Of a stretch of DNA of 64,000 nt, positions 4,852-26,707 are shown in pieces. The DNA comes from Ignavibacteria bacterium (GTDB lineage: Bacteria > Bacteroidota > Ignavibacteria > Kapaibacteriales > Kapaibacteriaceae), in NCBI GenBank assembly GCA_947458785.1, contig CANGZU010000001.1:4269-68268 (forward strand), read 5' to 3'. The notes under the pieces were generated by a model. The model did not search any database, was not told the DNA's origin, and was given only the letters and a program-made list of their open reading frames with translations. The translations under genes were made by a program, and so were the position numbers. The stretch's first letter is position 1. The number at the start of each line of letters is the position of its first letter.

Positions 4852-5420
4852 TGTTGCACCTCATGATAGCGGAAGCACGAAACTAGGTGATCATTGACCA
4901 TGCCAGTTGCCTGCATGTGGGCGTAGACAACAGTGCTGCCAACAAATGAGAATCCTCGCTGTTTGAGGTCCTTGCTGAGACGATCAGAGACATCCGTCTT
5001 GGAAGGCAAATCACTGAGTTCATGGAATGCGTTGATAGTTGGCCGACCATCCACAAAATCCCAAATGTATGCGTCGAATGAGCCGTGGCTCTCTTGAACA
5101 CGAAGAAACGCTTGCGCGTTGGCCACAGCAGCCCTAATCTTTTGTTGATTGCGGATGATGCCAGGATCTGCCATACAGCGGATGATGTCGGTCTCGGTAA
5201 ATCTCGCTACCACGTCTGGCCGAAAACCAGCGAACGCCTCGCGAAAGTTCTCACGCTTCTTCAGAACGGTATGCCAGCTCAATCCCGCCTGCATTGTTTC
5301 GAGAATGAGGAACTCGAACAAGAGCTGATCATCATGTAATGGCAAGCCCCATTCGTGATCGTGATAGTGCATGTAGAGGTCGTCCTTCATACACCAGCCA
5401 CATCGATGGATCGCACTCAT
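4848..5420 (-). CDS. tag: DNA-3-methyladenine glycosylase I
   Basis: RCGWC...HDHEWG...LILETMQAGLSW motifs as in E. coli Tag; start refined to the Met preceding RCGW. Confidence 0.8.
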   Translation of the reverse strand: MSAIHRCGWCMKDDLYMHYHDHEWGLPLHDDQLLFEFLILETMQAGLSWHTVLKKRENFREAFAGFRPDVVARFTETDIIRCMADPGIIRNQQKIRAAVANAQAFLRVQESHGSFDAYIWDFVDGRPTINAFHELSDLPSKTDVSDRLSKDLKQRGFSFVGSTVVYAHMQATGMVNDHLVSCFRYHEVQQ

Positions 5421-6472
5421 GCCAGCTGCCCTCCACACGAAGAGCCCGAGCCTGCTGTGCAGCCAAAACAATGGCGGTCTGTAGCGATCATACGCGACGT
5501 AATCTGCGCCTCGTCGAACTCAGCAATGTGCTTGACGCGTGATGCAACTGGCATCTCAAGCATCTGATTGAAGTCACAGTCGTAGAGACGTCCATCGTAT
5601 CCAACCGATATGGTGGTTCGACACATTACACCATGCGCGGCCGCAGGGTTAAACGCATCGACCAGTGTACGCATGTATCGCTCGTAGTTGCCTGAGTTGA
5701 CCAAGAATTCAAGGAATCTCGAGATCGGCATGTTCGTTATGCAGTGCAGACTATTAAAGACAACGTTGTGCTTATCGGAAAGATTGCGCTTGAACTCCTT
5801 CTCCAGTGATGCCTGGGGTCCGGGCAGCAATGCTCCAACAGGATTGTAGACTAGGTCTATAAGAAGCCCGGAGTTTTCAATCCCGTATCCCACATCATTG
5901 AGCATTTTGAGTGCTCTGATCGAGTCGTGGAACACGCCGCCCCCTCGCTGACGATCCGTATACGTCGCGTCGTAGAACGGCAGGCTTGAGACAACATGTA
6001 CACCATGCTCAGCGTAAAACTGCGGCAGATCATGATACTTCGGATTGGCAACAATGATCGTCAGATTGCAACGCACCATTACCATTACGCCACGTGCTGA
6101 AAGCTGCTCGACAAACCAGCGAAACTCTGGATTCATCTCTGGCGCACCACCGGTGAGATCTACTGTTGAGATGGTGCTCGCATCGAGCGCATCGAGACAC
6201 TGCTGCATGATCTCGCGAGACATGATCTCGGTTCGATCGGGTCCGGCATCAACGTGACAATGCTTGCAGGCCTGGTTGCACATCTTGCCAAGATTGATCT
6301 GCAAGATTGACGGCGAAAGCGGACGGAGCTCACCGATTCCAGAGTGCATGAGCTGTTCATCAAACTGCGGCAGGGAAAGCACTGCTGCATCCTGTTGCAG
6401 AAGTTGACGTTGGACACCAACGTTGGAGAGCTCAGATCCGCGTCGGATAAGGCTGGTAGTTGCAAGAGCCAT
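5417..6472 (-). CDS. arsS: radical SAM / Cys-rich domain protein, ArsS-like (arsenosugar biosynthesis family)
   Basis: CNQACKHC radical-SAM CX3CX2C box; C-terminal Cys-rich tail CFGCTAGSGSSCGG; about 350 aa as for the TIGR04167 family. Confidence 0.65.
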   Translation of the reverse strand: MALATTSLIRRGSELSNVGVQRQLLQQDAAVLSLPQFDEQLMHSGIGELRPLSPSILQINLGKMCNQACKHCHVDAGPDRTEIMSREIMQQCLDALDASTISTVDLTGGAPEMNPEFRWFVEQLSARGVMVMVRCNLTIIVANPKYHDLPQFYAEHGVHVVSSLPFYDATYTDRQRGGGVFHDSIRALKMLNDVGYGIENSGLLIDLVYNPVGALLPGPQASLEKEFKRNLSDKHNVVFNSLHCITNMPISRFLEFLVNSGNYERYMRTLVDAFNPAAAHGVMCRTTISVGYDGRLYDCDFNQMLEMPVASRVKHIAEFDEAQITSRMIATDRHCFGCTAGSGSSCGGQLA

Positions 6473-18339: not shown

Positions 18340-19125
18340 TCAAATGTCTGTGGTTGCATGCATTTCGAACCCTCGCTCTGCGCTGAATGTGCCATAGGTA
18401 GCGGGCCGAGCGAGCCAGTGGCCGAGATTGATGTACCATCCATCCCGATGAGCAGTTGTCTCGGCCTTGTGGCGATGGCCCATGACCACGTAATCGAAGC
18501 CTTCATTGATCTTGCCGAGGGCAAAATCGCGAAGACCATCGCTCGTTCCATAGTCCTTGTGTCCAGTGTAGTCACGGCTTCCATGCGACGTGGCTGAAGC
18601 AAGTCCGATGCCCACATTCGGATGGAGCAGCCTATAGAACCACTGGGCTATTCGACTGCGCAGGACTGAACGCAGGATGAGATAGCCCGTATCGTTATGG
18701 GCCTTTCCGTCGCCATGAGCAATGTAGAATCGCTTACCATTGATTACTGCCTCGACATCTCCGCCGAGAACCTCAATGTCGAGCTCCTTATGGAAATACG
18801 TATCGTGACCGAAATCATGATTCCCCATCAGATACGTAACAGGTATCCCCTGATCTCTGAATCTGCCTAGGCAGGCAAGGGTTCGCACGTGATCGCGGGG
18901 AATGACCCGGGAGTAGTCAAACCAGAGGTCGAACAGATCGCCAACAATGAACAGGTGGCCACACGTCGGGAGAGCCCCCTCGAGAACTTTGAGCAGGTCG
19001 GACTCGCGCTGCCGGTCCTGATCGCGGGTGCCGTAGCCCAGATGTACGTCGGAAATGAACAGAGCATTTCGACCGGGCTGGAGGTCTACCGAGAGAGCAG
19101 TACGTGAAACAACTGGGTCGAACAT
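18340..19125 (-). CDS. calcineurin-like metallophosphoesterase (LpxH-like UDP-2,3-diacylglucosamine hydrolase family)
   Basis: FISDVHLG...DLFDLW...GNHDF motifs; start placed at Met 19125 (ORF extends to 19179). Confidence 0.6.
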   Translation of the reverse strand: MFDPVVSRTALSVDLQPGRNALFISDVHLGYGTRDQDRQRESDLLKVLEGALPTCGHLFIVGDLFDLWFDYSRVIPRDHVRTLACLGRFRDQGIPVTYLMGNHDFGHDTYFHKELDIEVLGGDVEAVINGKRFYIAHGDGKAHNDTGYLILRSVLRSRIAQWFYRLLHPNVGIGLASATSHGSRDYTGHKDYGTSDGLRDFALGKINEGFDYVVMGHRHKAETTAHRDGWYINLGHWLARPATYGTFSAERGFEMHATTDI

Positions 19126-19190
19126 AACGATAAGATAACGCCCAGAAGGCCTGCGACGGCTATCTTTGTGCCGAATCACGAAGTGTTATC

Positions 19191-20009
19191 ATGTCAGTTG
19201 TACCCAATACCCGCAAACGCGTAACAACCCGCAGGCTGATTGAAATGAAGTCTGCAGGGAAACCCATCGCATGCCTTACCGCATACGATGCTATCTCGGC
19301 CGCTATCCTTGATGCCTCTGGCGTCGAAGTGCTGCTGGTAGGTGACTCTGTAGGGAACGTGATTCAGGGACACGACACGACTATTCCCGTAACGCTCGAG
19401 CACATGATCTACCACACCCAAGCTGTGGTAAGAGCAGTCAGCCGTGCACTGGTGGTTACTGATATGCCCTTTATGAGTTATCAGGTATCGCCGCAGGAAG
19501 CCTTTCGGAATGCCGGGCGTCTGATGAAGGAAGCTGGCTCCGGGGCGGTCAAGCTCGAGGGTGGCCAGCGGGTCGTGGATTCGGTCAGGCTCATGACGGA
19601 AAACGGAATTCCTGTTATGGGGCACTTGGGGCTTACACCCCAGAGTATTCATCAGTTTGGGTCCTACAAGGAAAGGGGCTCTACCCCGGAAGAAGCAGAG
19701 ATCATGAAGCGTGACGCCCTGGCACTGCAAGAGGCAGGCGCATTTGCGATCGTTCTCGAGAAGATCCCAGCAACTCTGGCAGCGGAGATCACAAGCCTGC
19801 TTTCGATTCCTACAATAGGCATCGGAGCTGGGCCCGCATGTGACGGACAGATCCTTGTCTGGACAGATATGATGGGGATGTCCACGGAATTCAATCCTCG
19901 GTTCGTGCGGCGGTATGCTGATCTGCACACCGTTATGATCGAAGCAGCCTCACAGTACGTTCGCGACGTCAAAGAGCGTTCGTTCCCCTCAGACGAGGAA
20001 AGCTACTGA
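19191..20009 (+). CDS. panB: 3-methyl-2-oxobutanoate hydroxymethyltransferase
   Basis: [13 protein letters not shown]...[10 protein letters not shown]...GHLGLTPQS PanB motifs. Confidence 0.9.
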
Positions 20010-20401
20010 TGCGGAATCTTCTCATCATCGCAACGATCATGTGGGGGCTTGTGCTCGCATCATGCGATGGTTCAATGATTACCGAGCCACAAGATGTTGT
20101 GTTTCCAGACAGCAATGTGAGCTTTCGTGGACAGGTTTTGCCATTTCTGGCCGTTACCTGTGCGGTAAGTGGATGCCACGGAGACATAGGGGCAGCTGCT
20201 GGGATTCGGTTAACTTCGTACTCAACGTTACTTTTCGACAGACCCAACTTGGTTGTACCAGGCAAGCCCGACGAAAGCTTGATCATGCAAGTGCTCGACG
20301 GACGGCTTCTACATCCATGGGGGAACATCCAATCGGTCGTATCCAGCTCGCAGGTTCGTGGCATGGGTACATGGATCATCGAGGGCGCAATCAATAACTA
20401 G
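20009..20401 (+). CDS. small lipoprotein with PSCyt1-like (planctomycete cytochrome c-like) domain, atypical CX4CH
   Basis: lipobox LASC; VLPFLAVTCAVSGCHGD...IRLTSY...VVPGKPDESLIMQVL matches the PSCyt1 pattern, but the Cys are spaced CX4CH. Confidence 0.45.
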   Translation: MRNLLIIATIMWGLVLASCDGSMITEPQDVVFPDSNVSFRGQVLPFLAVTCAVSGCHGDIGAAAGIRLTSYSTLLFDRPNLVVPGKPDESLIMQVLDGRLLHPWGNIQSVVSSSQVRGMGTWIIEGAINN

Positions 20402-20432
20402 GTCACTGAACATTCTTTCGGAGTCAATTTTC

Positions 20433-21452
20433 ATGTCGACACTTCGTTCGCTTCTTATTGCCTTGGCTGGCATCGCGATCATTGCTGGATGTCAACCTAA
20501 GGCCAAACCCGTGCCAATCGAAGGCCTCGAGCTCAAGAAAGATGAGCTCCGCAAATTCGAGATCAAGGTTCCTGCGAACTGGGTTGTCCAGCACCGAAAA
20601 GGCGATATGATCGTGGCCTTTAGCACGAAGGCACATGCTGCGAGATTCACGCAGTTTGGCAAGGGGCGTGGTGGAGCAAAGGTCGAGATTCGCGCCATCG
20701 CTATGGACAGCACCACGAACATTGATTCTCTTGTCAAGCGCTCTAAGCTCGAGTTTGAAGATGGCCTTGACCGTTACCAGAAATCAGTCGCAACGTTAGG
20801 TGGTAAGTCTGGTCAGCGCTTGTTCGTTGATTTCGACCAGGAAGACGGCAAGTTCGTCACTGAATCGTATTTCGCTGAGAACGACTCAGTGGTAACGATG
20901 GTCACATTCGCAGCCTTCGGCAACACATTCGAAGACTATGAAGAAGAGTTCAAAGAGATTTTGGCATCGGTAAAGCTTGCCAAGAAAATGGCTCCACTTC
21001 CGGCTGGTGTTCCGCAGGGGCCGGGAGCACCTGTCCCCCCTAGCGATACTCTTAAGCCACACAGCGGTGGCGACTACGCGATCAGCTATCCAAAGAACTT
21101 CGAAACCAAGAAGGGTTCAGCATCAGCCATAAGCTCAACGATCTTTGTTGGAGCCCGCTTGGACTGTTCAATCCAGGTTGACGTGATCAACGCAAAGGAG
21201 CAAAACAACCTTGACCGAATCGTAGAACAGAACAAGGCGCGCTATCCAGGCGCAACGCAGAGCAATGCAACGCTCGGCGGACAGAAGTCCGTTGTGTTTG
21301 CCTACAATCCAACGGCAACCATTGCAGCGCGCGCATACTTTGCTGTCAAGGGCGATAAGATGTACCGCGTCACTGTCAACTGGAGCAAGGCAGATGAAAA
21401 GGTCTATTTACCGATCTTTGAGAAGTGTGTTCGCTCAATGAAGCTCAACTAA
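20433..21452 (+). CDS. lipoprotein with internally duplicated domain, unknown function
   Basis: lipobox IAGC; two about 150 aa halves with similar pattern; start refined to Met 20433. Confidence 0.4.
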   Translation: MSTLRSLLIALAGIAIIAGCQPKAKPVPIEGLELKKDELRKFEIKVPANWVVQHRKGDMIVAFSTKAHAARFTQFGKGRGGAKVEIRAIAMDSTTNIDSLVKRSKLEFEDGLDRYQKSVATLGGKSGQRLFVDFDQEDGKFVTESYFAENDSVVTMVTFAAFGNTFEDYEEEFKEILASVKLAKKMAPLPAGVPQGPGAPVPPSDTLKPHSGGDYAISYPKNFETKKGSASAISSTIFVGARLDCSIQVDVINAKEQNNLDRIVEQNKARYPGATQSNATLGGQKSVVFAYNPTATIAARAYFAVKGDKMYRVTVNWSKADEKVYLPIFEKCVRSMKLN

Positions 21453-21466
21453 ACGAGACCGTACAG

Positions 21467-22639
21467 ATGAAGGTAGCCGTCATCATCGCCGTCGTATTGT
21501 TCTCCAGTGCGACGGCGTTTTCTATTCCGCAGTTCTCTGCCATTTCCGGAAATCGCTGTATCAACTGTCACGTTGCCCCTTCAGGTGGCGGCGTGCGCAA
21601 CGATCTCGGTTGGTACAGCTGGTATGATGTAGGTCTTGTCCCAAGAACGAATGACCTGTTCAGCTGGTTCTACGACAAGGACTCGTCGAATCAGTTCTTT
21701 AACGGCAAGCTGATTCTTGGCATGGACACTCGCATCCAAAGTACACGGTCCTTCAACAGCGAAGCCTCGGTGCGCAGAACATTTCCAATGCAGACCTCAT
21801 TCTACTCGGCGTACACGCCAATTCCCGAGGTCACCATCGAAGGTTCAGTGAATCTGTCGACGATCGCCCTTGGGTCTGACAATCTTCCCTACCCCGGAAT
21901 GCGTCCGGCAGCAATCTCAGCAATCATTGCACCATCATTCTCTTGGCCATCACTGCGCGTCGGCATGTTCCGTCCGAACATCGGCATGCGATACGACGAC
22001 CACACCATGGCCCCCTACTCCTACACTCTTGCTACGCAGCGCAGGACAGTGATTGCCCCAGACTGGTCCGAGCTTGGTGCCGAGGTATCCTACGAGGGGC
22101 TCAAGTGGCTCTCGCTTCAGGCTGGCGTCTTCAGCAGTGAAGGTCTTTCTCAGGTTCGCATCTCCGATGGAATTGAAACATTTTCAGTTGTCAACGGCAA
22201 CCAGCCAACACTAACAGCTAGAGCAGTGCTCTGGCCGCGTGCATTCAACGACAAGCTGAACATGTGGTTCGGCGGTTCATATCTGCAGAACAACGACTTC
22301 AGCATTACGAGCGCCTTCAGCGGAATTGGACTCAGCGATGAGTTCTCACTCATGCTCGACTACACTCGCATGCATTACGATGATCGCTTTAGCTCTGAGT
22401 CTATGATGGCAGAGTTAATGTATTCGGCATCGACGTGGTTCTTCCCGTATGTTCGGGCAGAGCGTTACTATACGGATCAGTATCGAGCACGTGGCACCTA
22501 CCTGAGTAACTCTGCCACAATCGGAGCTCAGATCTTTTTGATGCCCTATATCGAGCTGCGTCCGGAATACCGCATCTGGGACACGTGGATGACTGGTTAT
22601 ACGTCTCGCTGGAACGTGCAACTGCACTTTTTCTATTGA
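21467..22639 (+). CDS. Cyc2-like fused monoheme cytochrome c-porin (outer membrane)
   Basis: signal peptide, then a single CINCH (CXXCH) about 10 aa into the mature protein, then about 350 aa of alternating amphipathic beta strands ending in aromatic FFY. Confidence 0.5.
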   Translation: MKVAVIIAVVLFSSATAFSIPQFSAISGNRCINCHVAPSGGGVRNDLGWYSWYDVGLVPRTNDLFSWFYDKDSSNQFFNGKLILGMDTRIQSTRSFNSEASVRRTFPMQTSFYSAYTPIPEVTIEGSVNLSTIALGSDNLPYPGMRPAAISAIIAPSFSWPSLRVGMFRPNIGMRYDDHTMAPYSYTLATQRRTVIAPDWSELGAEVSYEGLKWLSLQAGVFSSEGLSQVRISDGIETFSVVNGNQPTLTARAVLWPRAFNDKLNMWFGGSYLQNNDFSITSAFSGIGLSDEFSLMLDYTRMHYDDRFSSESMMAELMYSASTWFFPYVRAERYYTDQYRARGTYLSNSATIGAQIFLMPYIELRPEYRIWDTWMTGYTSRWNVQLHFFY

Positions 22640-22659
22640 TCGCAACAGGAGCCCCGTTC

Positions 22660-22959
22660 ATGAAACAGAACATCCTCATCATCATTGGAGTTGTAGGCAT
22701 CCTTGTAGGGGGCTGGCTCTGGGTTAAGGACGGCATGCATGTGTTCTCCAAGGATCGTGAAGAAGTGGTCCGCGAATTCAAGGACGAACTTTTCGGGACA
22801 ACCCGACGCGAAGTTGAGTACATCCCCGCATTTAAGTTTGGCCTACTTCCAGTCGATGTAACTGTAGCTGATTTCCCACGCTGCTACGCATTCGTAGGCA
22901 GTGTCTCAGTTGCACTCATTGGATTCGGCCTCTGGCGCAAACGCTCCTCTAGCAAGTAG
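22660..22959 (+). CDS. small two-helix membrane protein, unknown function
   Basis: 99 aa with N- and C-terminal hydrophobic helices; directly downstream of the Cyc2-like gene. Confidence 0.35.
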   Translation: MKQNILIIIGVVGILVGGWLWVKDGMHVFSKDREEVVREFKDELFGTTRREVEYIPAFKFGLLPVDVTVADFPRCYAFVGSVSVALIGFGLWRKRSSSK

Positions 22960-22967
22960 CACCTACC

Positions 22968-23060
22968 TCGTCATTCGTCATTGGTAATTCGTCATTCGTC
23001 ATTGGTAATTCGTCATTCGTCATTGGTAATTCGTCATTCGTCATTGGTAATTCGTCATTA
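22968..23060. repeat. perfect 21-bp tandem repeat x4.4 (TCGTCATTCGTCATTGGTAAT)
   Basis: read directly; each unit contains two TCGTCATT octamers; fills the intergenic space immediately 5' of the Rieske gene. Confidence 0.95.
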
Positions 23061-23068
23061 GCACGCCC

Positions 23069-23542
23069 ATGTCTACCTCATCTCGTCGTTCATTCCTGCA
23101 GCAGGCTGCTGCATCTGTTGGACTCGTTCTATCTGCTTCTACAGTGGCAACGCTTGTTGCCGGTTGTGAACAGGACGAAAGTCAGCCAACATCACCAGGC
23201 AAGACATATGATGTAAGTCTTGCAGCGTTTCCAGAGCTCAACACCGTTGGCAGTATCATCCAGACTACCATTGCTGGCGTGAATAACGGGGAGATGGTCT
23301 TCATCTCTCGTATCGATGCGCAGACGTTTGTGGTCTTCAGCACGGTCTGTACGCATTCAGGTTGCGGCGTGGGTCTGCCAATCGATGCTGCAAGCAATTG
23401 CGTTTGTCCGTGCCACAAGGCGGAGTTTGCACGCAGTAATGGTGCCGTACTAAGGCAGCCAACGTCTGGATCAGCTACGGACCTGCCCCGGTTTTCTTCG
23501 ACATACAATGCCTCTTCCAACGTGCTCACGATAACGGTCTAA
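23069..23542 (+). CDS. Tat-exported Rieske [2Fe-2S] protein
   Basis: SRRSFLQQAAA twin-arginine signal; CTHSGC and CPCH Rieske boxes. Confidence 0.8.
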   Translation: MSTSSRRSFLQQAAASVGLVLSASTVATLVAGCEQDESQPTSPGKTYDVSLAAFPELNTVGSIIQTTIAGVNNGEMVFISRIDAQTFVVFSTVCTHSGCGVGLPIDAASNCVCPCHKAEFARSNGAVLRQPTSGSATDLPRFSSTYNASSNVLTITV

Positions 23543-23544
23543 GC

Positions 23545-24615
23545 GTGCCAATTCCCTCAGAGTATCATGACGCCGTGCGCGACGCCGTCTACGACGTAAC
23601 CGCACAGCATAAGCACCTGTCGTCGAGTATAGAGCGCGTCTTTCGTGAGTTTAGACCCGATGCAGAAACTGCGCGCGCCGTGCGTGCAGCTATCTATCAG
23701 GCTGTGCGCTATGACGATGCCGATGCTGCCATTGACGGAGCACTGGACGGAGTTGTTGATCAGCGTCTTGCGCACTTCCCTGAGTGGTTGCGTGTTCGCA
23801 TTCGCGAGGTCTTTACCGACAATGCAGACAACGTGCTGACGTCGATGCTCAGCGATGCGTCAACGTTTATACGCGTCAACACACACCGCATCGATATCGC
23901 CACATGTGTGGCAGCGCTCGCCCCTTACGCGCCGTTGTATCTCGAGAATGAGATCATTCGTATCGACGAACCATTTGGTCTGTACACATCTGAAGCATTC
24001 CAGCGCGGCTGGTTCGAGCAGCAGGACATCAATTCGTACAAGGCTGCATGCGAGCTACCGTGTACGCCAGGTATGCGCATTGTAGACGCTTGCGCTGGTG
24101 CGGGCGGCAAGTCTCTCGTGTTCGCTAGCCACATGAAGAACAAGGGACGCATCATTGCCCTGGACACGCAAGCCTCCAAGCTTGATGCACTTCGCACGCG
24201 ATCAACGCGCGCTGGCGTAGACATTATCGAAACTCGCGAGATAACAACCACGAAAGTGGTAAAGCGACTTCACGAAACAGCGGACGGTGTTTTTATCGAT
24301 GTGCCGTGCACAGGCACGGGCGTGATCCGTCGCAATCCCGACATCCTCTATCGCCTCACCCCAGAATCTCTGCAGGAGTTGGTTAACATTCAGGCCGACA
24401 TCTTGCGGCGGTCCGCACCGATTGCTAAGGTTGGCGCAACAGTTGTTTACACAACGTGCAGCGTGCTTCCCGAAGAGGGACGCAACCAGATCAGTGCGTT
24501 TCTGGCAACTGAGTCTGGTGCTAAGTTTTCACTCCAGCATGAATGGTCCACACTGCCCAACGATGCAGGGGGCGACGGGTTCTACGTAGCACGGCTCAAG
24601 CGCGAGGCTGTGTGA
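23545..24615 (+). CDS. RsmB/Sun (NOL1/NOP2) family rRNA cytosine-C5 methyltransferase
   Basis: VDACAGAGGKS SAM-binding motif and IDVPCTGTG catalytic motif. Confidence 0.8.
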   Translation: MPIPSEYHDAVRDAVYDVTAQHKHLSSSIERVFREFRPDAETARAVRAAIYQAVRYDDADAAIDGALDGVVDQRLAHFPEWLRVRIREVFTDNADNVLTSMLSDASTFIRVNTHRIDIATCVAALAPYAPLYLENEIIRIDEPFGLYTSEAFQRGWFEQQDINSYKAACELPCTPGMRIVDACAGAGGKSLVFASHMKNKGRIIALDTQASKLDALRTRSTRAGVDIIETREITTTKVVKRLHETADGVFIDVPCTGTGVIRRNPDILYRLTPESLQELVNIQADILRRSAPIAKVGATVVYTTCSVLPEEGRNQISAFLATESGAKFSLQHEWSTLPNDAGGDGFYVARLKREAV

Positions 24616-24616
24616 G

Positions 24617-24994
24617 ATGAACGCCCCAGAACAGATCACCGTGATCTTCGATGGGATGTGCAACCTCTGCGATGCCACCGTAAACCATTTGCATCGGCAC
24701 GACATAAACCGTCAGCTACGCTACATACCGTTTCAGGGCGAAGAGGGCTCGGCACTGCTCCGCAGACACGGCGTTATGGGTCCGCCCGACTCGGTATATG
24801 TTATCACGCCATCGGGAGAATTCTACACAGAAGATCTGGCCATGATCTATCTCTTTACCCTCCTGGGTGGATGGCACAAGCCCCTTGCCTACCTGATCAA
24901 GGCCATTCCTCGCTTGATCAGGCGTCCGGTGTATCAGTGGATGTCACGAAACCGGTATGCGATGTTCGGCAAGCGAGAGACCTGTCGGTATTGA
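24617..24994 (+). CDS. DCC1-like thiol-disulfide oxidoreductase (DUF393)
   Basis: VIFDGMCNLCD motif near the N-terminus. Confidence 0.7.
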   Translation: MNAPEQITVIFDGMCNLCDATVNHLHRHDINRQLRYIPFQGEEGSALLRRHGVMGPPDSVYVITPSGEFYTEDLAMIYLFTLLGGWHKPLAYLIKAIPRLIRRPVYQWMSRNRYAMFGKRETCRY

Positions 24995-25069
24995 CCTCTT
25001 GGAAATCCCCTGTAGTTCGGTATCTTTGCCGTCCTTGTCAAAAGTGAACCCATTCGGGAGTCAAGAATT

Positions 25070-25393
25070 ATGAGTACCTACATCGTTAATCCTGTCAAGG
25101 TCCGCATGGACGAGTCTGCAAAGGGCTCGATCTATAAGTCTATCGTTGCCATGGGCTTACGCTCACGTCAGATCAACGACCAGATCAAGACACAGATCTC
25201 CGAGCGCCTTGCCGACGTTATCGTCGACACGGACGAGGCGGAAGGTCCAAATGCAGACCAGATCGCAATCAGCAAGGAGTTTGACCTTCTTCCGAAGCCT
25301 ACGTTCTTGGCGATGAAGGAAATGACAGACGGTCAGATCCATGTCCGCACGGAGCCGCTTCCAGTTGCAGCTCCTTTGGTAGCAGAGGAATAA
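25070..25393 (+). CDS. rpoZ: probable DNA-directed RNA polymerase subunit omega
   Basis: 107 aa; SIYKSIVAMGLRSRQIN resembles the omega core; conserved rpoZ-coaBC linkage. Confidence 0.5.
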   Translation: MSTYIVNPVKVRMDESAKGSIYKSIVAMGLRSRQINDQIKTQISERLADVIVDTDEAEGPNADQIAISKEFDLLPKPTFLAMKEMTDGQIHVRTEPLPVAAPLVAEE

Positions 25394-25453
25394 CCAATCC
25401 ATGAAGTTGAGGAAGAGCCATCCGGTCTGTGCCGAGATGGCTCTTGTTGTCTT

Positions 25454-26707
25454 ATGAACATCCTGCTTGGAATAACCGGAAGCGTTTCGGCCTACAAAAC
25501 GCCATGGCTTGTGCGAGATCTGCGCAAGGCCGGCCACGACGTGCGCGTGGTGATGACTCCATCTGCCCGCCAGTTCGTAGCGCCACTGGCCCTGGAGGCG
25601 GTATCACTGCATTCGGTGATCATCGACCCCTACGATCCAGCAATTCAGCAAGGGGGCTCATGGCACGTGCATCTTGCTCAGTGGGCCGATTTGATCTTGA
25701 TCGCCCCTTGCTCAGCAACGACGTTGGCACGCCTTGCCACAGGGTTATGCGACACAGCTCTCATGACTGTTGTCTGCTCACGGACAGCCGACACTGAGCT
25801 GATCGTGTTCCCGGCCATGGACACCGACATGTGGCTGCAACCATCGACCAAGCGCAATGTTGAACAACTGCGCGCTGACGGCATCACCGTTGTAGATCCA
25901 GACTCAGGCGAGCTTGCTTCCGGACTGATAGGTCAAGGCAGACTGCCAGAGATTGGGAAGATCGTTGGGATAGTAGCGAGTGCCGAGTACCGAGTGCCGA
26001 GCAGCGAAGTTGGTCGTCCTCGCGAAAGCGGGGACCCAGCACTCGGAACACGGCACTCGGCACTCGGCACTCGGAACTCGCTGCTTATAACCGCTGGTCC
26101 CACCCATGAACGCATTGATGCCGTACGCTCGATCGTAAATCATGCCACGGGTACAATGGGATTTGCACTTGCAGAAGCTGCACAGAAGCGTGGGTACCTG
26201 GTGACGCTTGTGACGGGTCCAACAAATCTTCCAGCACCATTTGGCGTGGAACGCATAGATGTTGTGAGCGCACAAGAGATGTACGAAGCAGTGATGAAGC
26301 ACAGAGATGTGGACGCATTCATCATGGCGGCAGCAGTGGCTGACTTTACCCCATTGAAGCCGTCACAGCAGAAGATCAAGAAGGAACAACTCGGCGATAC
26401 TCTTTCGATAGAGCTTACCCGCACCCACGACATTCTCGCAGAGATCGGCAAGGGTAAGACAGAACGTCAACGCGTTGTCGGGTTTGCTCTCGAATCCGAC
26501 GACGTCGTCGAGAACGCGAAGCGAAAGCTCGCAACGAAGAGTGCAGACATGATTATTGCCAATCAGGCAGGCGTGCCGAACAGCGGGTTTGGCGGCGGAC
26601 AGAATACCATAACGATCGTTACGAATGGTTCGGATCCAAAGACCTATCCGGCGATGTCGAAACGCGCATGTGCCGAGGTGATCCTCGATGCATTGGAGAA
26701 CCTGTGA
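25454..26707 (+). CDS. coaBC: bifunctional phosphopantothenoylcysteine decarboxylase / phosphopantothenate-cysteine ligase
   Basis: N-terminal flavoprotein domain; LLITAGPTHERIDAVRSIVNHATGTMGFALAEAA CoaB signature; linker lengthened by a repeat element. Confidence 0.9.
   Translation: MNILLGITGSVSAYKTPWLVRDLRKAGHDVRVVMTPSARQFVAPLALEAVSLHSVIIDPYDPAIQQGGSWHVHLAQWADLILIAPCSATTLARLATGLCDTALMTVVCSRTADTELIVFPAMDTDMWLQPSTKRNVEQLRADGITVVDPDSGELASGLIGQGRLPEIGKIVGIVASAEYRVPSSEVGRPRESGDPALGTRHSALGTRNSLLITAGPTHERIDAVRSIVNHATGTMGFALAEAAQKRGYLVTLVTGPTNLPAPFGVERIDVVSAQEMYEAVMKHRDVDAFIMAAAVADFTPLKPSQQKIKKEQLGDTLSIELTRTHDILAEIGKGKTERQRVVGFALESDDVVENAKRKLATKSADMIIANQAGVPNSGFGGGQNTITIVTNGSDPKTYPAMSKRACAEVILDALENL
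25975..26085. repeat. imperfect palindromic element: arms of GCCGAGT/ACTCGGC heptamer repeats around a CGCGAAAGCG tetraloop core
   Basis: read directly; in-frame within the coaBC interdomain linker (encodes ...AEYRVPSSEVGRPRESGDPALGTRHSALGTRNS...). Confidence 0.85.

Follow-up and report, generated by a model that had tools for sequence, protein, structure and literature searches.

The locus analyzed here raises the question of whether a gene for a barrel protein with a single c-type heme motif encodes an outer-membrane iron oxidase of the Cyc2 type, a relative of Cyc2 with partners of its own, or a solute porin. Microbial iron oxidation is inferred from genomes and metagenomes mainly with Cyc2 as the genetic marker, and the periplasmic acceptor step is poorly defined even for canonical Cyc2. 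Its members include Acidithiobacillus ferrooxidans Cyc2, Mariprofundus ferrooxydans Cyc2PV-1 and Leptospirillum Cyt572, and fall into clusters 1-3 (McAllister 2020; Keffer 2021). We analyzed the gene in a 64-kb stretch of DNA (hereafter the window), together with its homologs and their loci in metagenomes.

The cytochrome-porin and its neighbors in the window

The listed open reading frame runs from 21425 to 22639 on the forward strand, and the ATG at 21467, which aligns with the start methionine of the homologs, gives a 390-aa product (Table 1). Its N-terminus, MKVAVIIAVVLFSSATAFS, reads as a signal peptide of about residues 1-19 upstream of a conserved IPQF, and the leaders of the homologs are hydrophobic and variable and end at the same point. 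The heme-binding segment, SIPQFSAISGNRCINCHVAPSGGGVRNDLGWY (residues 19-50), contains CINCH, the sole CXXCH of the protein, roughly 12 residues from the start of the mature chain; its two cysteines are the only ones among the 390 residues. The C-terminus reads WNVQLHFFY, in which the terminal FFY is the beta-signal. The length, signal peptide, single CINCH and aromatic FFY end given in the initial annotation were thus all read in the ORF.

Table 1 Features of the cytochrome-porin locus in window coordinates
Feature	Position	Strand	Remarks
Lipoprotein, 130 aa, lipobox LASC, PSCyt1-type cytochrome c domain	20009..20401	+	PSCyt1 24.8 bits, above cut-off
Lipoprotein, 339 aa, weak DcrB-like match at best	20433..21452	+	Between PSCyt1-like cytochrome and cytochrome-porin
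Putative fused monoheme cytochrome-porin, divergent Cyc2-superfamily clade	21467..22639	+	390 aa
CINCH codons, c-type heme attachment motif, aa 31-35	21557..21571	+	C31, C34, H35 invariant
Long loop (aa 171-201) linking strands 5 and 6, porin loop L3 position	21977..22069	+	Strand positions from AF2 model
Protein, 99 aa, hydrophobic N- and C-terminal helices	22660..22959	+	Directly downstream of cytochrome-porin
Rieske [2Fe-2S] lipoprotein, 157 aa	23069..23542	+	Pfam Rieske 1e-7, TAT signal

The β-barrel proposed in the initial annotation was predicted with confidence by AlphaFold2 (mean pLDDT 84, pTM 0.81), with 16 long β strands over residues 82-389; the heme segment was modeled at low confidence (pLDDT < 50, residues 14-42). 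The best solved-structure match was the phosphate porin OprP. This likeness is one of fold only, as the Pfam Porin_O_P model did not match the protein at E <= 1, and a sequence-profile search of the PDB with the family returned nothing at E <= 10. The long loop at the L3 position bears an invariant MRYDDHT (D177, D178, H179 and T180), which, judged from the sequence and the model, may serve as a metal site within the pore or as a distal heme ligand.

Conservation of the heme motif in orthologs had been set as a test of the cytochrome assignment, and all 112 full-length homologs proved to have CXXCH at the corresponding position; eight homologs lacking it are N-terminally truncated gene calls and were left out of this count. 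The three heme-motif residues are invariant in a 51-sequence alignment reaching down to 37% identity, and conservation within the protein peaks in the segment with AxPxF and CxxCH. This invariance, together with the specific alignment of the segment with the Cyc2 cytochrome motif, rules out a chance CXXCH in an ordinary porin. Invariant residues particular to the family lie in FPMQ (M108), MRYDDHT (H179) and QLHxFY (H387), and the family alignment also contains numerous invariant arginines, with many charged positions of the lumen conserved as well.

No Pfam or NCBIfam model matched the protein, with Pfam tested to E <= 1 and its porin families included. Every named homolog is called "hypothetical" and comes from a MAG of Ignavibacteria, Kapabacteria or Bacteroidota, and cluster look-ups of distant members returned solely the name "hypothetical protein". 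These results bear out the earlier remark that nothing beyond the heme box is annotated, and they are at odds with ordinary outer-membrane proteins as the closest homologs, the outcome that had been named as speaking against the assignment. An exhaustive profile search gave 143 clusters (at 50% identity) at E <= 1e-30 and about 980 at E <= 1e-3, and carriers of the family are widespread environmental Ignavibacteria and Kapabacteria. The closest homologs come from Ignavibacteria and Kapabacteria MAGs (82-83% identity), which fits the FCB-group genome proposed earlier. An FCB-group origin also agrees with a T9SS sorting domain encoded at another place in the window.

The flanking heme and Fe-S genes mentioned in the initial annotation are present as the PSCyt1-like lipoprotein and the Rieske lipoprotein of Table 1. 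The former has an unusual CX4CH heme motif (CAVSGCH), whose C51, C56 and H57 are invariant in orthologs, and is related to a version with CASCH in locus L127. The latter has a twin-arginine signal (SRRSFL), a lipobox (LVAGC) and the cluster boxes CTHSGC and CPCH, in which the disulfide cysteine pair characteristic of high-potential Rieske centers is also found. Among solved structures, the b6f Rieske protein and the arsenite oxidase AioB come closest to this lipoprotein. Of the remaining neighbors, the 339-aa lipoprotein keeps its position in close relatives only, and the 99-aa two-helix membrane protein, for which Pfam and NCBIfam gave no significant family, has DxLFGT and GLLP motifs conserved across loci. 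The cytochrome-porin gene is surrounded by housekeeping genes in a syntenic region and not by oxidase genes, and it has no linked terminal oxidase or quinol oxidoreductase. Searches of the 64-kb window found no YceI gene, no second, canonical Cyc2 and no multiheme gene, the only other ORF with a CXXCH being that of a radical-SAM protein. A promoter and terminator scan of positions 18900-25500 gave sites no more numerous than in shuffled sequences.

Relation of the family to canonical Cyc2

The architecture of the protein is that of Cyc2, in which a signal peptide is followed by a lone CXXCH in the first 15 or so residues of the mature chain, a post-heme proline/leucine/glycine segment that is also present in the family, and a 16-strand OprP-like barrel with an aromatic C-terminus, about 400 aa in total. 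OprP/OprO is also the template reported for Cyc2 (PMC8406198), and the 390 aa of the protein exceed the 365-aa minimum length used for Cyc2. However, the published defining motif consists of PXFAR[Q/K][T/Y] and PXL, and AXPXFAR[Q/K][T/Y] upstream of CXXCH serves as the inclusion filter (PMC8406198); the family departs from both parts. First, the protein reads S-I-P-Q-F-S-A-I-S at this position and the family consensus is A[IL]PQFSLLTGN[RK]C, so that AxPxF and the AxPxF-x7-CxxCH spacing are identical to those of canonical Cyc2, while AR[QK][TY] is replaced with S[LA][LI][ST] followed by GN[RK]. P.FAR[QK][TY] was absent from all 266 family sequences examined. Second, the PXL four residues past CXXCH becomes PxGGGL in the family: the protein continues CH-V-A-P-S-G-G-G-V-R after the heme box, with the proline one residue earlier and GGG inserted before the aliphatic residue, and hhalign placed a 3-residue gap at this proline segment. 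Published Cyc2 pipelines require PXFAR[Q/K][T/Y], and surveys filtered by this motif would miss the family.

Searches of sequences with HMMs likewise barely link the two groups, as the canonical-Cyc2 HMM scored the protein at 3.2 bits and the family HMM scored canonical Cyc2 at no more than 19 bits. Profile-profile comparison does join them over both the heme segment and the barrel. With canonical reference sequences gathered by a degenerate DNA pattern, the family aligned to 33 canonical Cyc2 at 98.4% probability (E 7.6e-15, 345 columns) and to 85 canonical Cyc2 at 96.7% (hhalign, E 4e-10, 328 columns), against E values of 0.02-0.9 for reversed, column-shuffled and block-shuffled controls. 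The N-terminal segment alone reached 95-96% against Cyc2 and the barrel alone 93.7% against one Cyc2 subgroup, and an RVGxFxP barrel motif is common to both groups. Furthermore, a distant branch of the family bridges them, aligning to the family at 100% and to canonical Cyc2 at 98.9-99.4% (E 2e-17 to 5e-21). The E values of the family against canonical subgroups (1e-6 to 1e-13) are nevertheless weaker than those of most canonical-canonical pairs (1e-13 to 1e-66).

Full-motif canonical Cyc2 occurs separately in Kapabacteria, Ignavibacteriaceae and Melioribacteraceae (loci L018, L064, L038 and L044), and the family and canonical Cyc2 are therefore distinct paralogous lines in the same phyla. We consider it very likely that the protein belongs to the Cyc2 superfamily of cytochrome-porins, within which the family is, by sequence comparison, a large, divergent and so far unnamed new clade. 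The earlier label of Cyc2-like thus holds for the architecture and for homology at the profile level, and does not extend to the defining motif or to recognition by the Cyc2 HMM.

Linkage to a Rieske protein and the proposed electron conduit

The gene neighborhood of the family is distinctive. In metagenomes, 39 of 41 family loci have a Rieske gene within 3.5 kb on the same strand, against just 3 of 40 canonical Cyc2 loci, and this linkage persists through differing gene orders and unrelated flanks; the minimal unit, in locus L167, consists of the cytochrome-porin and Rieske genes only. The two-helix small protein is found in 27 of the 41 loci (0 of about 120 canonical Cyc2 loci), and YceI and a PSCyt1-like cytochrome lipoprotein in 18 each, while one subfamily adjoins a hexaheme lipoprotein and two monoheme cytochromes. 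The near-obligate Rieske neighbor lends strong support to the electron conduit with flanking redox genes that had been proposed from the sequence of the window, and our literature search turned up no published pairing of a Rieske protein with a protein of the Cyc2 type.

Taken as a whole, our preferred explanation, to which we assign a probability of roughly 60%, is a heme-porin of the Cyc2 superfamily that passes electrons via the adjacent Rieske lipoprotein. That the two proteins work together in electron transfer is likely, and together they probably form a conduit from the outer membrane to the periplasm. In the arrangement that we infer, which extends to heme attachment and position, the direction of electron flow, the substrate and the contact with the Rieske protein, one c-type heme would be covalently bound to a very short stretch at the N-terminus. 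This stretch would be fused to the 16-strand OprP-like outer-membrane barrel and would sit at or in its periplasmic mouth, as in the Cyc2 model. A small dissolved redox-active solute from outside would enter the pore and exchange an electron with the heme, from which the electron would pass to the periplasmic, lipid-anchored, high-potential-type Rieske [2Fe-2S] protein encoded alongside. The Rieske protein would thereby fill the role of rusticyanin or of the HiPIP-type carriers of known iron oxidizers. From there, electrons may move on to the PSCyt1-like lipoprotein, the small c-type cytochrome whose gene lies upstream in this window, or to a YceI-type isoprenoid/quinone-binding protein in other genomes; both routes would head towards the respiratory chain. 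Counting against the conduit are the departure from the strict Cyc2 motif, the faint link to canonical Cyc2 in HMM-to-sequence searches, the low model confidence of the heme segment, the housekeeping setting of the gene and the lack of a linked terminal oxidase or quinol oxidoreductase.

By analogy, Fe(II) would be the likeliest solute, and we propose it only tentatively, at somewhat below even odds, as the physiological substrate. To our knowledge, the host lineages Ignavibacteria and Kapabacteria are not known iron oxidizers, and the invariant arginines and OprP-like fold could, as far as the sequence indicates, make the pore anion-selective and unfavorable for free Fe2+.

In an unlikely alternative, electrons would flow outward, from the quinone pool through YceI-bound quinol and the Rieske protein to the heme-porin and on to soluble extracellular acceptors, or would be taken up from non-iron donors. 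Candidate acceptors under this alternative are chelated Fe(III), humic quinones and oxygen-derived species. YceI binds polyisoprenoids and quinones, and its linkage in 18 of the 41 loci would suit such a route, as would the fact that Rieske centers naturally take electrons from quinols. The many invariant arginines could suit anionic chelates, the hexaheme lipoprotein beside one subfamily is of the metal-reduction type, and the heterotrophic host lineages have Fe(III)-reducing relatives. Cyc2 homologs have been reported in taxa of this kind (PMC6344600). On the other hand, a high-potential-type Rieske protein with disulfide cysteines would be a poor donor to low-potential acceptors, YceI is absent from this window, and we know of no experimental precedent for electron export by a monoheme porin.

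A plain canonical Cyc2 iron oxidase of clusters 1-3, acting as in Zetaproteobacteria, Gallionellaceae and Acidithiobacillus, is improbable. The shared architecture, length, fold and AxPxF...CxxCH spacing are what such an enzyme would have, and even the Cyc2 clusters mutually share only 17-23% identity; but the missing PxFAR[QK][TY], the altered PXL, the HMM score and hhalign values given above, the separate full-motif Cyc2 in the same phyla and the sharply unlike neighborhood all set the family apart. A conventional porin for solutes, for instance an anion channel of the OprP type, is equally improbable; its CXXCH would be a heme, disulfide or metal site with a structural, sensing or protective and non-respiratory function. 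In that case, the linkage to the Rieske gene would reflect a different process in common, perhaps iron acquisition or redox-stress defense. OprP as the best solved match, the charged lumen and the housekeeping setting of the gene are consistent with such a porin, yet the Pfam porin families gave no match, the most conserved segment is the one that aligns with the Cyc2 cytochrome motif, and the recurrent neighbors (Rieske protein, c-type cytochromes and YceI) are all periplasm-exported redox proteins. An MtoB/PioB-type porin was rejected on size, strand number, the fused heme and the lack of a decaheme neighbor.

Returning to the conduit of heme-porin and Rieske lipoprotein, the near-obligate neighbor offers a concrete candidate for the protein that accepts electrons from a Cyc2-type heme in the periplasm, and the linkage points to a pathway, so far undescribed, by which electrons would cross the cell envelope. 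If the protein is redox-active, its carrier organisms are counted too low in surveys of iron cycling and extracellular electron transfer. A broader proposal, which we regard as doubtful, is that the family and its Rieske partner constitute an unrecognized minimal two-protein conduit across the outer membrane that is widespread in Ignavibacteriota, Kapabacteria and Bacteroidota. In many of these genomes, a YceI-bound quinone would connect the module with the quinone pool of the membrane, with no soluble cytochromes in between. Nominally heterotrophic FCB bacteria of lakes, soils and sludge would then be able to oxidize Fe(II) or to make other redox exchanges with the outside, a capacity that marker surveys with the FeGenie Cyc2 HMMs and the motif filter would overlook.

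Comparison with other porins and electron-transfer systems

The solved porins OprP and OprO (PDB 2o4v and 4rjw) share the barrel fold with the cytochrome-porin at a sequence identity of just 15%, and OprP, unlike the cytochrome-porin, has neither a heme motif nor redox partners. In the MtrAB, MtoAB and PioAB systems, electrons cross the outer membrane through a heme-enclosing barrel, the same role as proposed here. Those systems have two components, a decaheme cytochrome and a separate heme-free barrel with some 26 strands in 700-800 aa, and can reach solid minerals. The cytochrome-porin would have one heme fused to a small 16-strand barrel within 390 aa, so that, by the argument made in PMC8406198, only pore-entering solutes could react with the heme.

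On the periplasmic side, the Rieske lipoprotein is a near-obligate neighbor in the family, where the carriers of other iron oxidizers are cytochrome c4/Cyc1, rusticyanin or HiPIP-type proteins. The linked Rieske protein could fill the periplasmic carrier role of rusticyanin and of the HiPIPs Iro and PioC, and it resembles the stand-alone high-potential Rieske proteins AioB and sulredoxin in being small, TAT-exported and equipped with disulfide cysteines. It differs from the soluble carriers in being a lipoprotein, and it is encoded with neither a cytochrome b nor a molybdopterin partner but beside the cytochrome-porin.

The cytochrome-porin, its family and its predicted fold

The ORF table places the cytochrome-porin gene at 21425..22639 (+) with a GTG start, and the ATG at 21467 gives a product whose first Met also begins the homologs, bearing out the 390-aa protein described in the initial annotation. 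Its hydrophobic leader, MKVAVIIAVVLFSSATAFS, is followed by IPQFSAISGNRCINCHVAPSGGG, and the protein ends in ...WNVQLHFFY. The haem motif CINCH occupies residues 31-35 and contains the only two cysteines of the protein. Pfam and NCBIfam gave zero matches, with hits at E <= 1 included. Within the signal-peptide codons, 20 nt past the start codon, lies a strong hairpin (13-bp stem with 8 G-C pairs) followed by TTTTCTATT. Such a position would suit attenuation at the level of translation or transcription. Around the gene, terminator-like sites total no more than in shuffles, so the hairpin may be due to chance.

A word-indexed search of 5.8 billion proteins revealed 222 homologs, and all the named ones are "hypothetical protein" entries from Ignavibacteria, Kapabacteria, Bacteroidetes or unclassified-bacterium MAGs. 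Among the matches listed, the closest named homologs (82-83% identity) come from Ignavibacteria bacterium MAGs. Exactly one CXXCH is found at the same position in 112 of the 120 homologs listed (of the 222 found); the 8 that lack it are gene calls truncated at the N-terminus. An exhaustive profile search against 1.84 billion cluster representatives gave 980 matches at E <= 1e-3, of which 346 reached E <= 1e-10 and 143 reached E <= 1e-30, indicating a large family. In an alignment of 51 sequences with identities down to 37% (A1), the invariant residues are C31, C34 and H35, P21 and G28, M108 (in FPMQ), D177, D178, H179 and T180 (in MRYDDHT), R365, P366 and E367, and Q385 and H387 (in QLHxFY). 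Unusually many arginines are invariant or nearly so (R44, R89, R94, R103, R164, R175, R330, R365, R369 and R381), as are the acidic residues D87, D177, D178, D291, E332 and E367, and these conserved charges recall the charged ladders of OprP; they may face the pore lumen or contact haem propionates.

A search for a solved Cyc2 structure found none. The AlphaFold2 model built on A1 (mean pLDDT 84, pTM 0.81) contains 16 long strands spanning residues 82-389. Only residues 14-42, which cover the last part of the leader and the haem segment, are modelled with low confidence, as would be expected where a segment depends on its cofactor. The invariant MRYDDHT sits in the loop that joins strands 5 and 6, corresponding in position to the constriction loop L3 of general porins. 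H387 is three residues short of the C-terminus, a part of the chain found at the periplasmic rim in porins. The MRYDDHT loop and H387 are both candidates for a haem ligand or metal site.

Relation to canonical Cyc2

Cyc2 has been defined by a signal peptide, one CXXCH, a 16-strand porin and a minimum length of 365 aa, with AXPXFAR[Q/K][T/Y] just upstream and PXL just downstream of the CXXCH; sequences lacking PXFAR[Q/K][T/Y] were left out of the published tree (Keffer et al., PMC8406198). To collect canonical references, we ran the back-translated pattern PxFAR[QK][TY]xxxCxxCH against a single genome of each species, which yielded 120 loci and 85 full-length proteins from sources including Mariprofundus and other Zetaproteobacteria, Acidithiobacillus, Nitrospira and Chlorobiaceae. 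The scan also recovered canonical Cyc2 from Kapabacteria (locus L018), Ignavibacteriaceae (L064) and Melioribacteraceae (L038, L044), each about 390-400 aa with the full PAFARKY...CxxCH...PxLK and a GFVSAF end. These proteins form a separate line within the same phyla as our family, and thus the FCB group has two distinct cytochrome-porin lines. Earlier work reported homologs of Cyc2 from MAGs of Ignavibacteriaceae (PMC6344600), using canonical queries in its searches.

The AxPxF-x7-CxxCH spacing is identical in the two lines, whereas the family has S[LA][LI][ST]GN[RK] in place of AR[QK][TY]xxx and PxGGGL in place of xPxL. None of 266 family members examined carries the canonical motif. The HMM of the 85 canonical references scored the query, the window protein, at 3.2 bits, and the family HMM scored the references at no more than 19 bits. 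By hhalign, the family matched the 85 references at 96.7% (E 4e-10, 328 columns), a set of 33 references at 98.4% (E 7.6e-15, 345 columns) and one canonical subgroup at 98% (E 2e-13); reversed, column-shuffled and block-shuffled controls of the family alignment gave E >= 0.02. The haem segment alone reached 95-96% against canonical Cyc2, and the barrel alone 93.7% against one canonical subgroup and 15.6% against a mixed canonical set. A distant family branch with the motif ALPRFAL[QR]xGxxCxxCHxNPTGG matched both the family (100%, E 2e-55) and canonical Cyc2 (98.9-99.4%, E 2e-17 to 5e-21), and canonical subgroups matched one another at E 1e-13 to 1e-66. Judged from these profile comparisons, the family would lie on the outskirts of the Cyc2 superfamily, as a clade at the limit of its known diversity or outside it. 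The initial observation is confirmed and its Cyc2-like interpretation supported. As a first refinement, the cytochrome-porin is not a canonical Cyc2; it probably represents a new, divergent clade of the superfamily, one that has a motif of its own.

Gene neighbourhood and the Rieske partner

The genes around the cytochrome-porin run head to tail on the + strand (see table).

Coordinates of features in the window and at fetched loci (L-handles, local coordinates)
Feature	Coordinates	Strand
panB	19191-20009	+
130-aa lipoprotein, PSCyt1 cytochrome c domain, conserved CX4CH	20009-20401	+
339-aa lipoprotein of unknown function	20433-21452	+
Cytochrome-porin	21467-22639	+
Hairpin	21487-21517	+
99-aa protein, two hydrophobic helices	22660-22959	+
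Rieske protein, twin-arginine signal, lipobox, CTHSGC...CPCH	23069-23542	+
rsmB-like methyltransferase	from 23545	+
Radical-SAM protein	5417-6472	-
Subfamily with motif ARPQYSILQxFGxKC and six-CXXCH lipoprotein	L127:856-1929	+
Relative of the PSCyt1-type lipoprotein	L127:3467-3868	
Rieske gene near canonical Cyc2	L096:3632-4045	
Rieske gene near canonical Cyc2	L084:4140-4673	
Rieske ortholog	L006:9530-10021	

In the PSCyt1-type lipoprotein, a conserved partner, CAVSGCH replaces CXXCH, and C51, C56 and H57 are invariant in orthologs; for a putative haem-attachment site, this spacing is unusual. Its relative beside another family member, at L127, has a normal CASCH. The only other CXXCH ORF of the window was rejected as a cytochrome, being a radical-SAM protein with a C-terminal DUF3641 domain (E 5e-55) and unrelated to the cytochrome-porin.

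The whole arrangement is preserved in relatives at 47-54% identity. At identities of about 39% and below, members have unrelated flanks and keep subsets of the partners, whose order varies: cytochrome-porin, 100-aa protein, YceI, with or without a following Rieske; Rieske, cytochrome-porin, PSCyt1-type cytochrome, YceI; Rieske, cytochrome-porin, YceI, 100-aa protein; or hexahaem lipoprotein, cytochrome-porin, PSCyt1-like CASCH cytochrome, monohaem cytochrome. At L127, a contig of only 4.5 kb, the family member has the subfamily motif ARPQYSILQxFGxKC, a six-CXXCH lipoprotein upstream, two monohaem cytochromes downstream and no Rieske.

To count partners, six-frame ORFs of 80 fetched metagenome loci were searched with partner-protein HMMs. 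Of these loci, 41 have 3 kb or more on both sides; there, a Rieske lay within 3.5 kb in 39, the 100-aa protein in 27, and YceI and the PSCyt1-like cytochrome in 18 each, always on the same strand. In some loci the Rieske is the sole companion, with unrelated opposite-strand genes around the pair (L167). The near-obligate Rieske partner is a second refinement of the initial interpretation. Among 40 canonical Cyc2 loci flanked by 2 kb or more, 3 had a nearby Rieske and none had the 100-aa protein, YceI or PSCyt1-like cytochrome; all 120 canonical loci gave one weak YceI match. A Rieske gene lies close downstream of a few canonical Cyc2 genes (L096, L084, L028 and L016), and so this partner may not be exclusive to the new clade. 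Our literature search found no paper combining Cyc2, Rieske and YceI, and no Kapabacteria paper linking Cyc2 with a Rieske protein.

The nearest solved relatives of the Rieske partner are the b6f Rieske and arsenite oxidase AioB, and it retains the pair of disulfide cysteines found in high-potential Rieske centres. The ortholog at L006 (boxes CTHSGN...CPFH) has lost both while keeping the cluster ligands, which suggests that the partner's potential may differ between lineages.

Putative function

On the best reading, a Cyc2-type outer-membrane haem-porin would exchange electrons first with a solute that enters its pore and next with the Rieske lipoprotein in the periplasm; from there the path would continue through either a small c-type cytochrome lipoprotein or an isoprenoid quinone bound to YceI. 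A role as a simple iron oxidase is made less likely by hosts from heterotrophic lineages, a gene location among housekeeping genes, the lack of any oxidase linked to the gene, and the many invariant arginines, which in an OprP-like barrel might favour anions. For the haem-porin reading, the analogy with Cyc2 would make the solute dissolved Fe(II), and, as a third refinement, an iron-oxidation function is plausible but unproven; Cyc2PV-1 itself has a redox potential of about +208 mV (PMC8406198).
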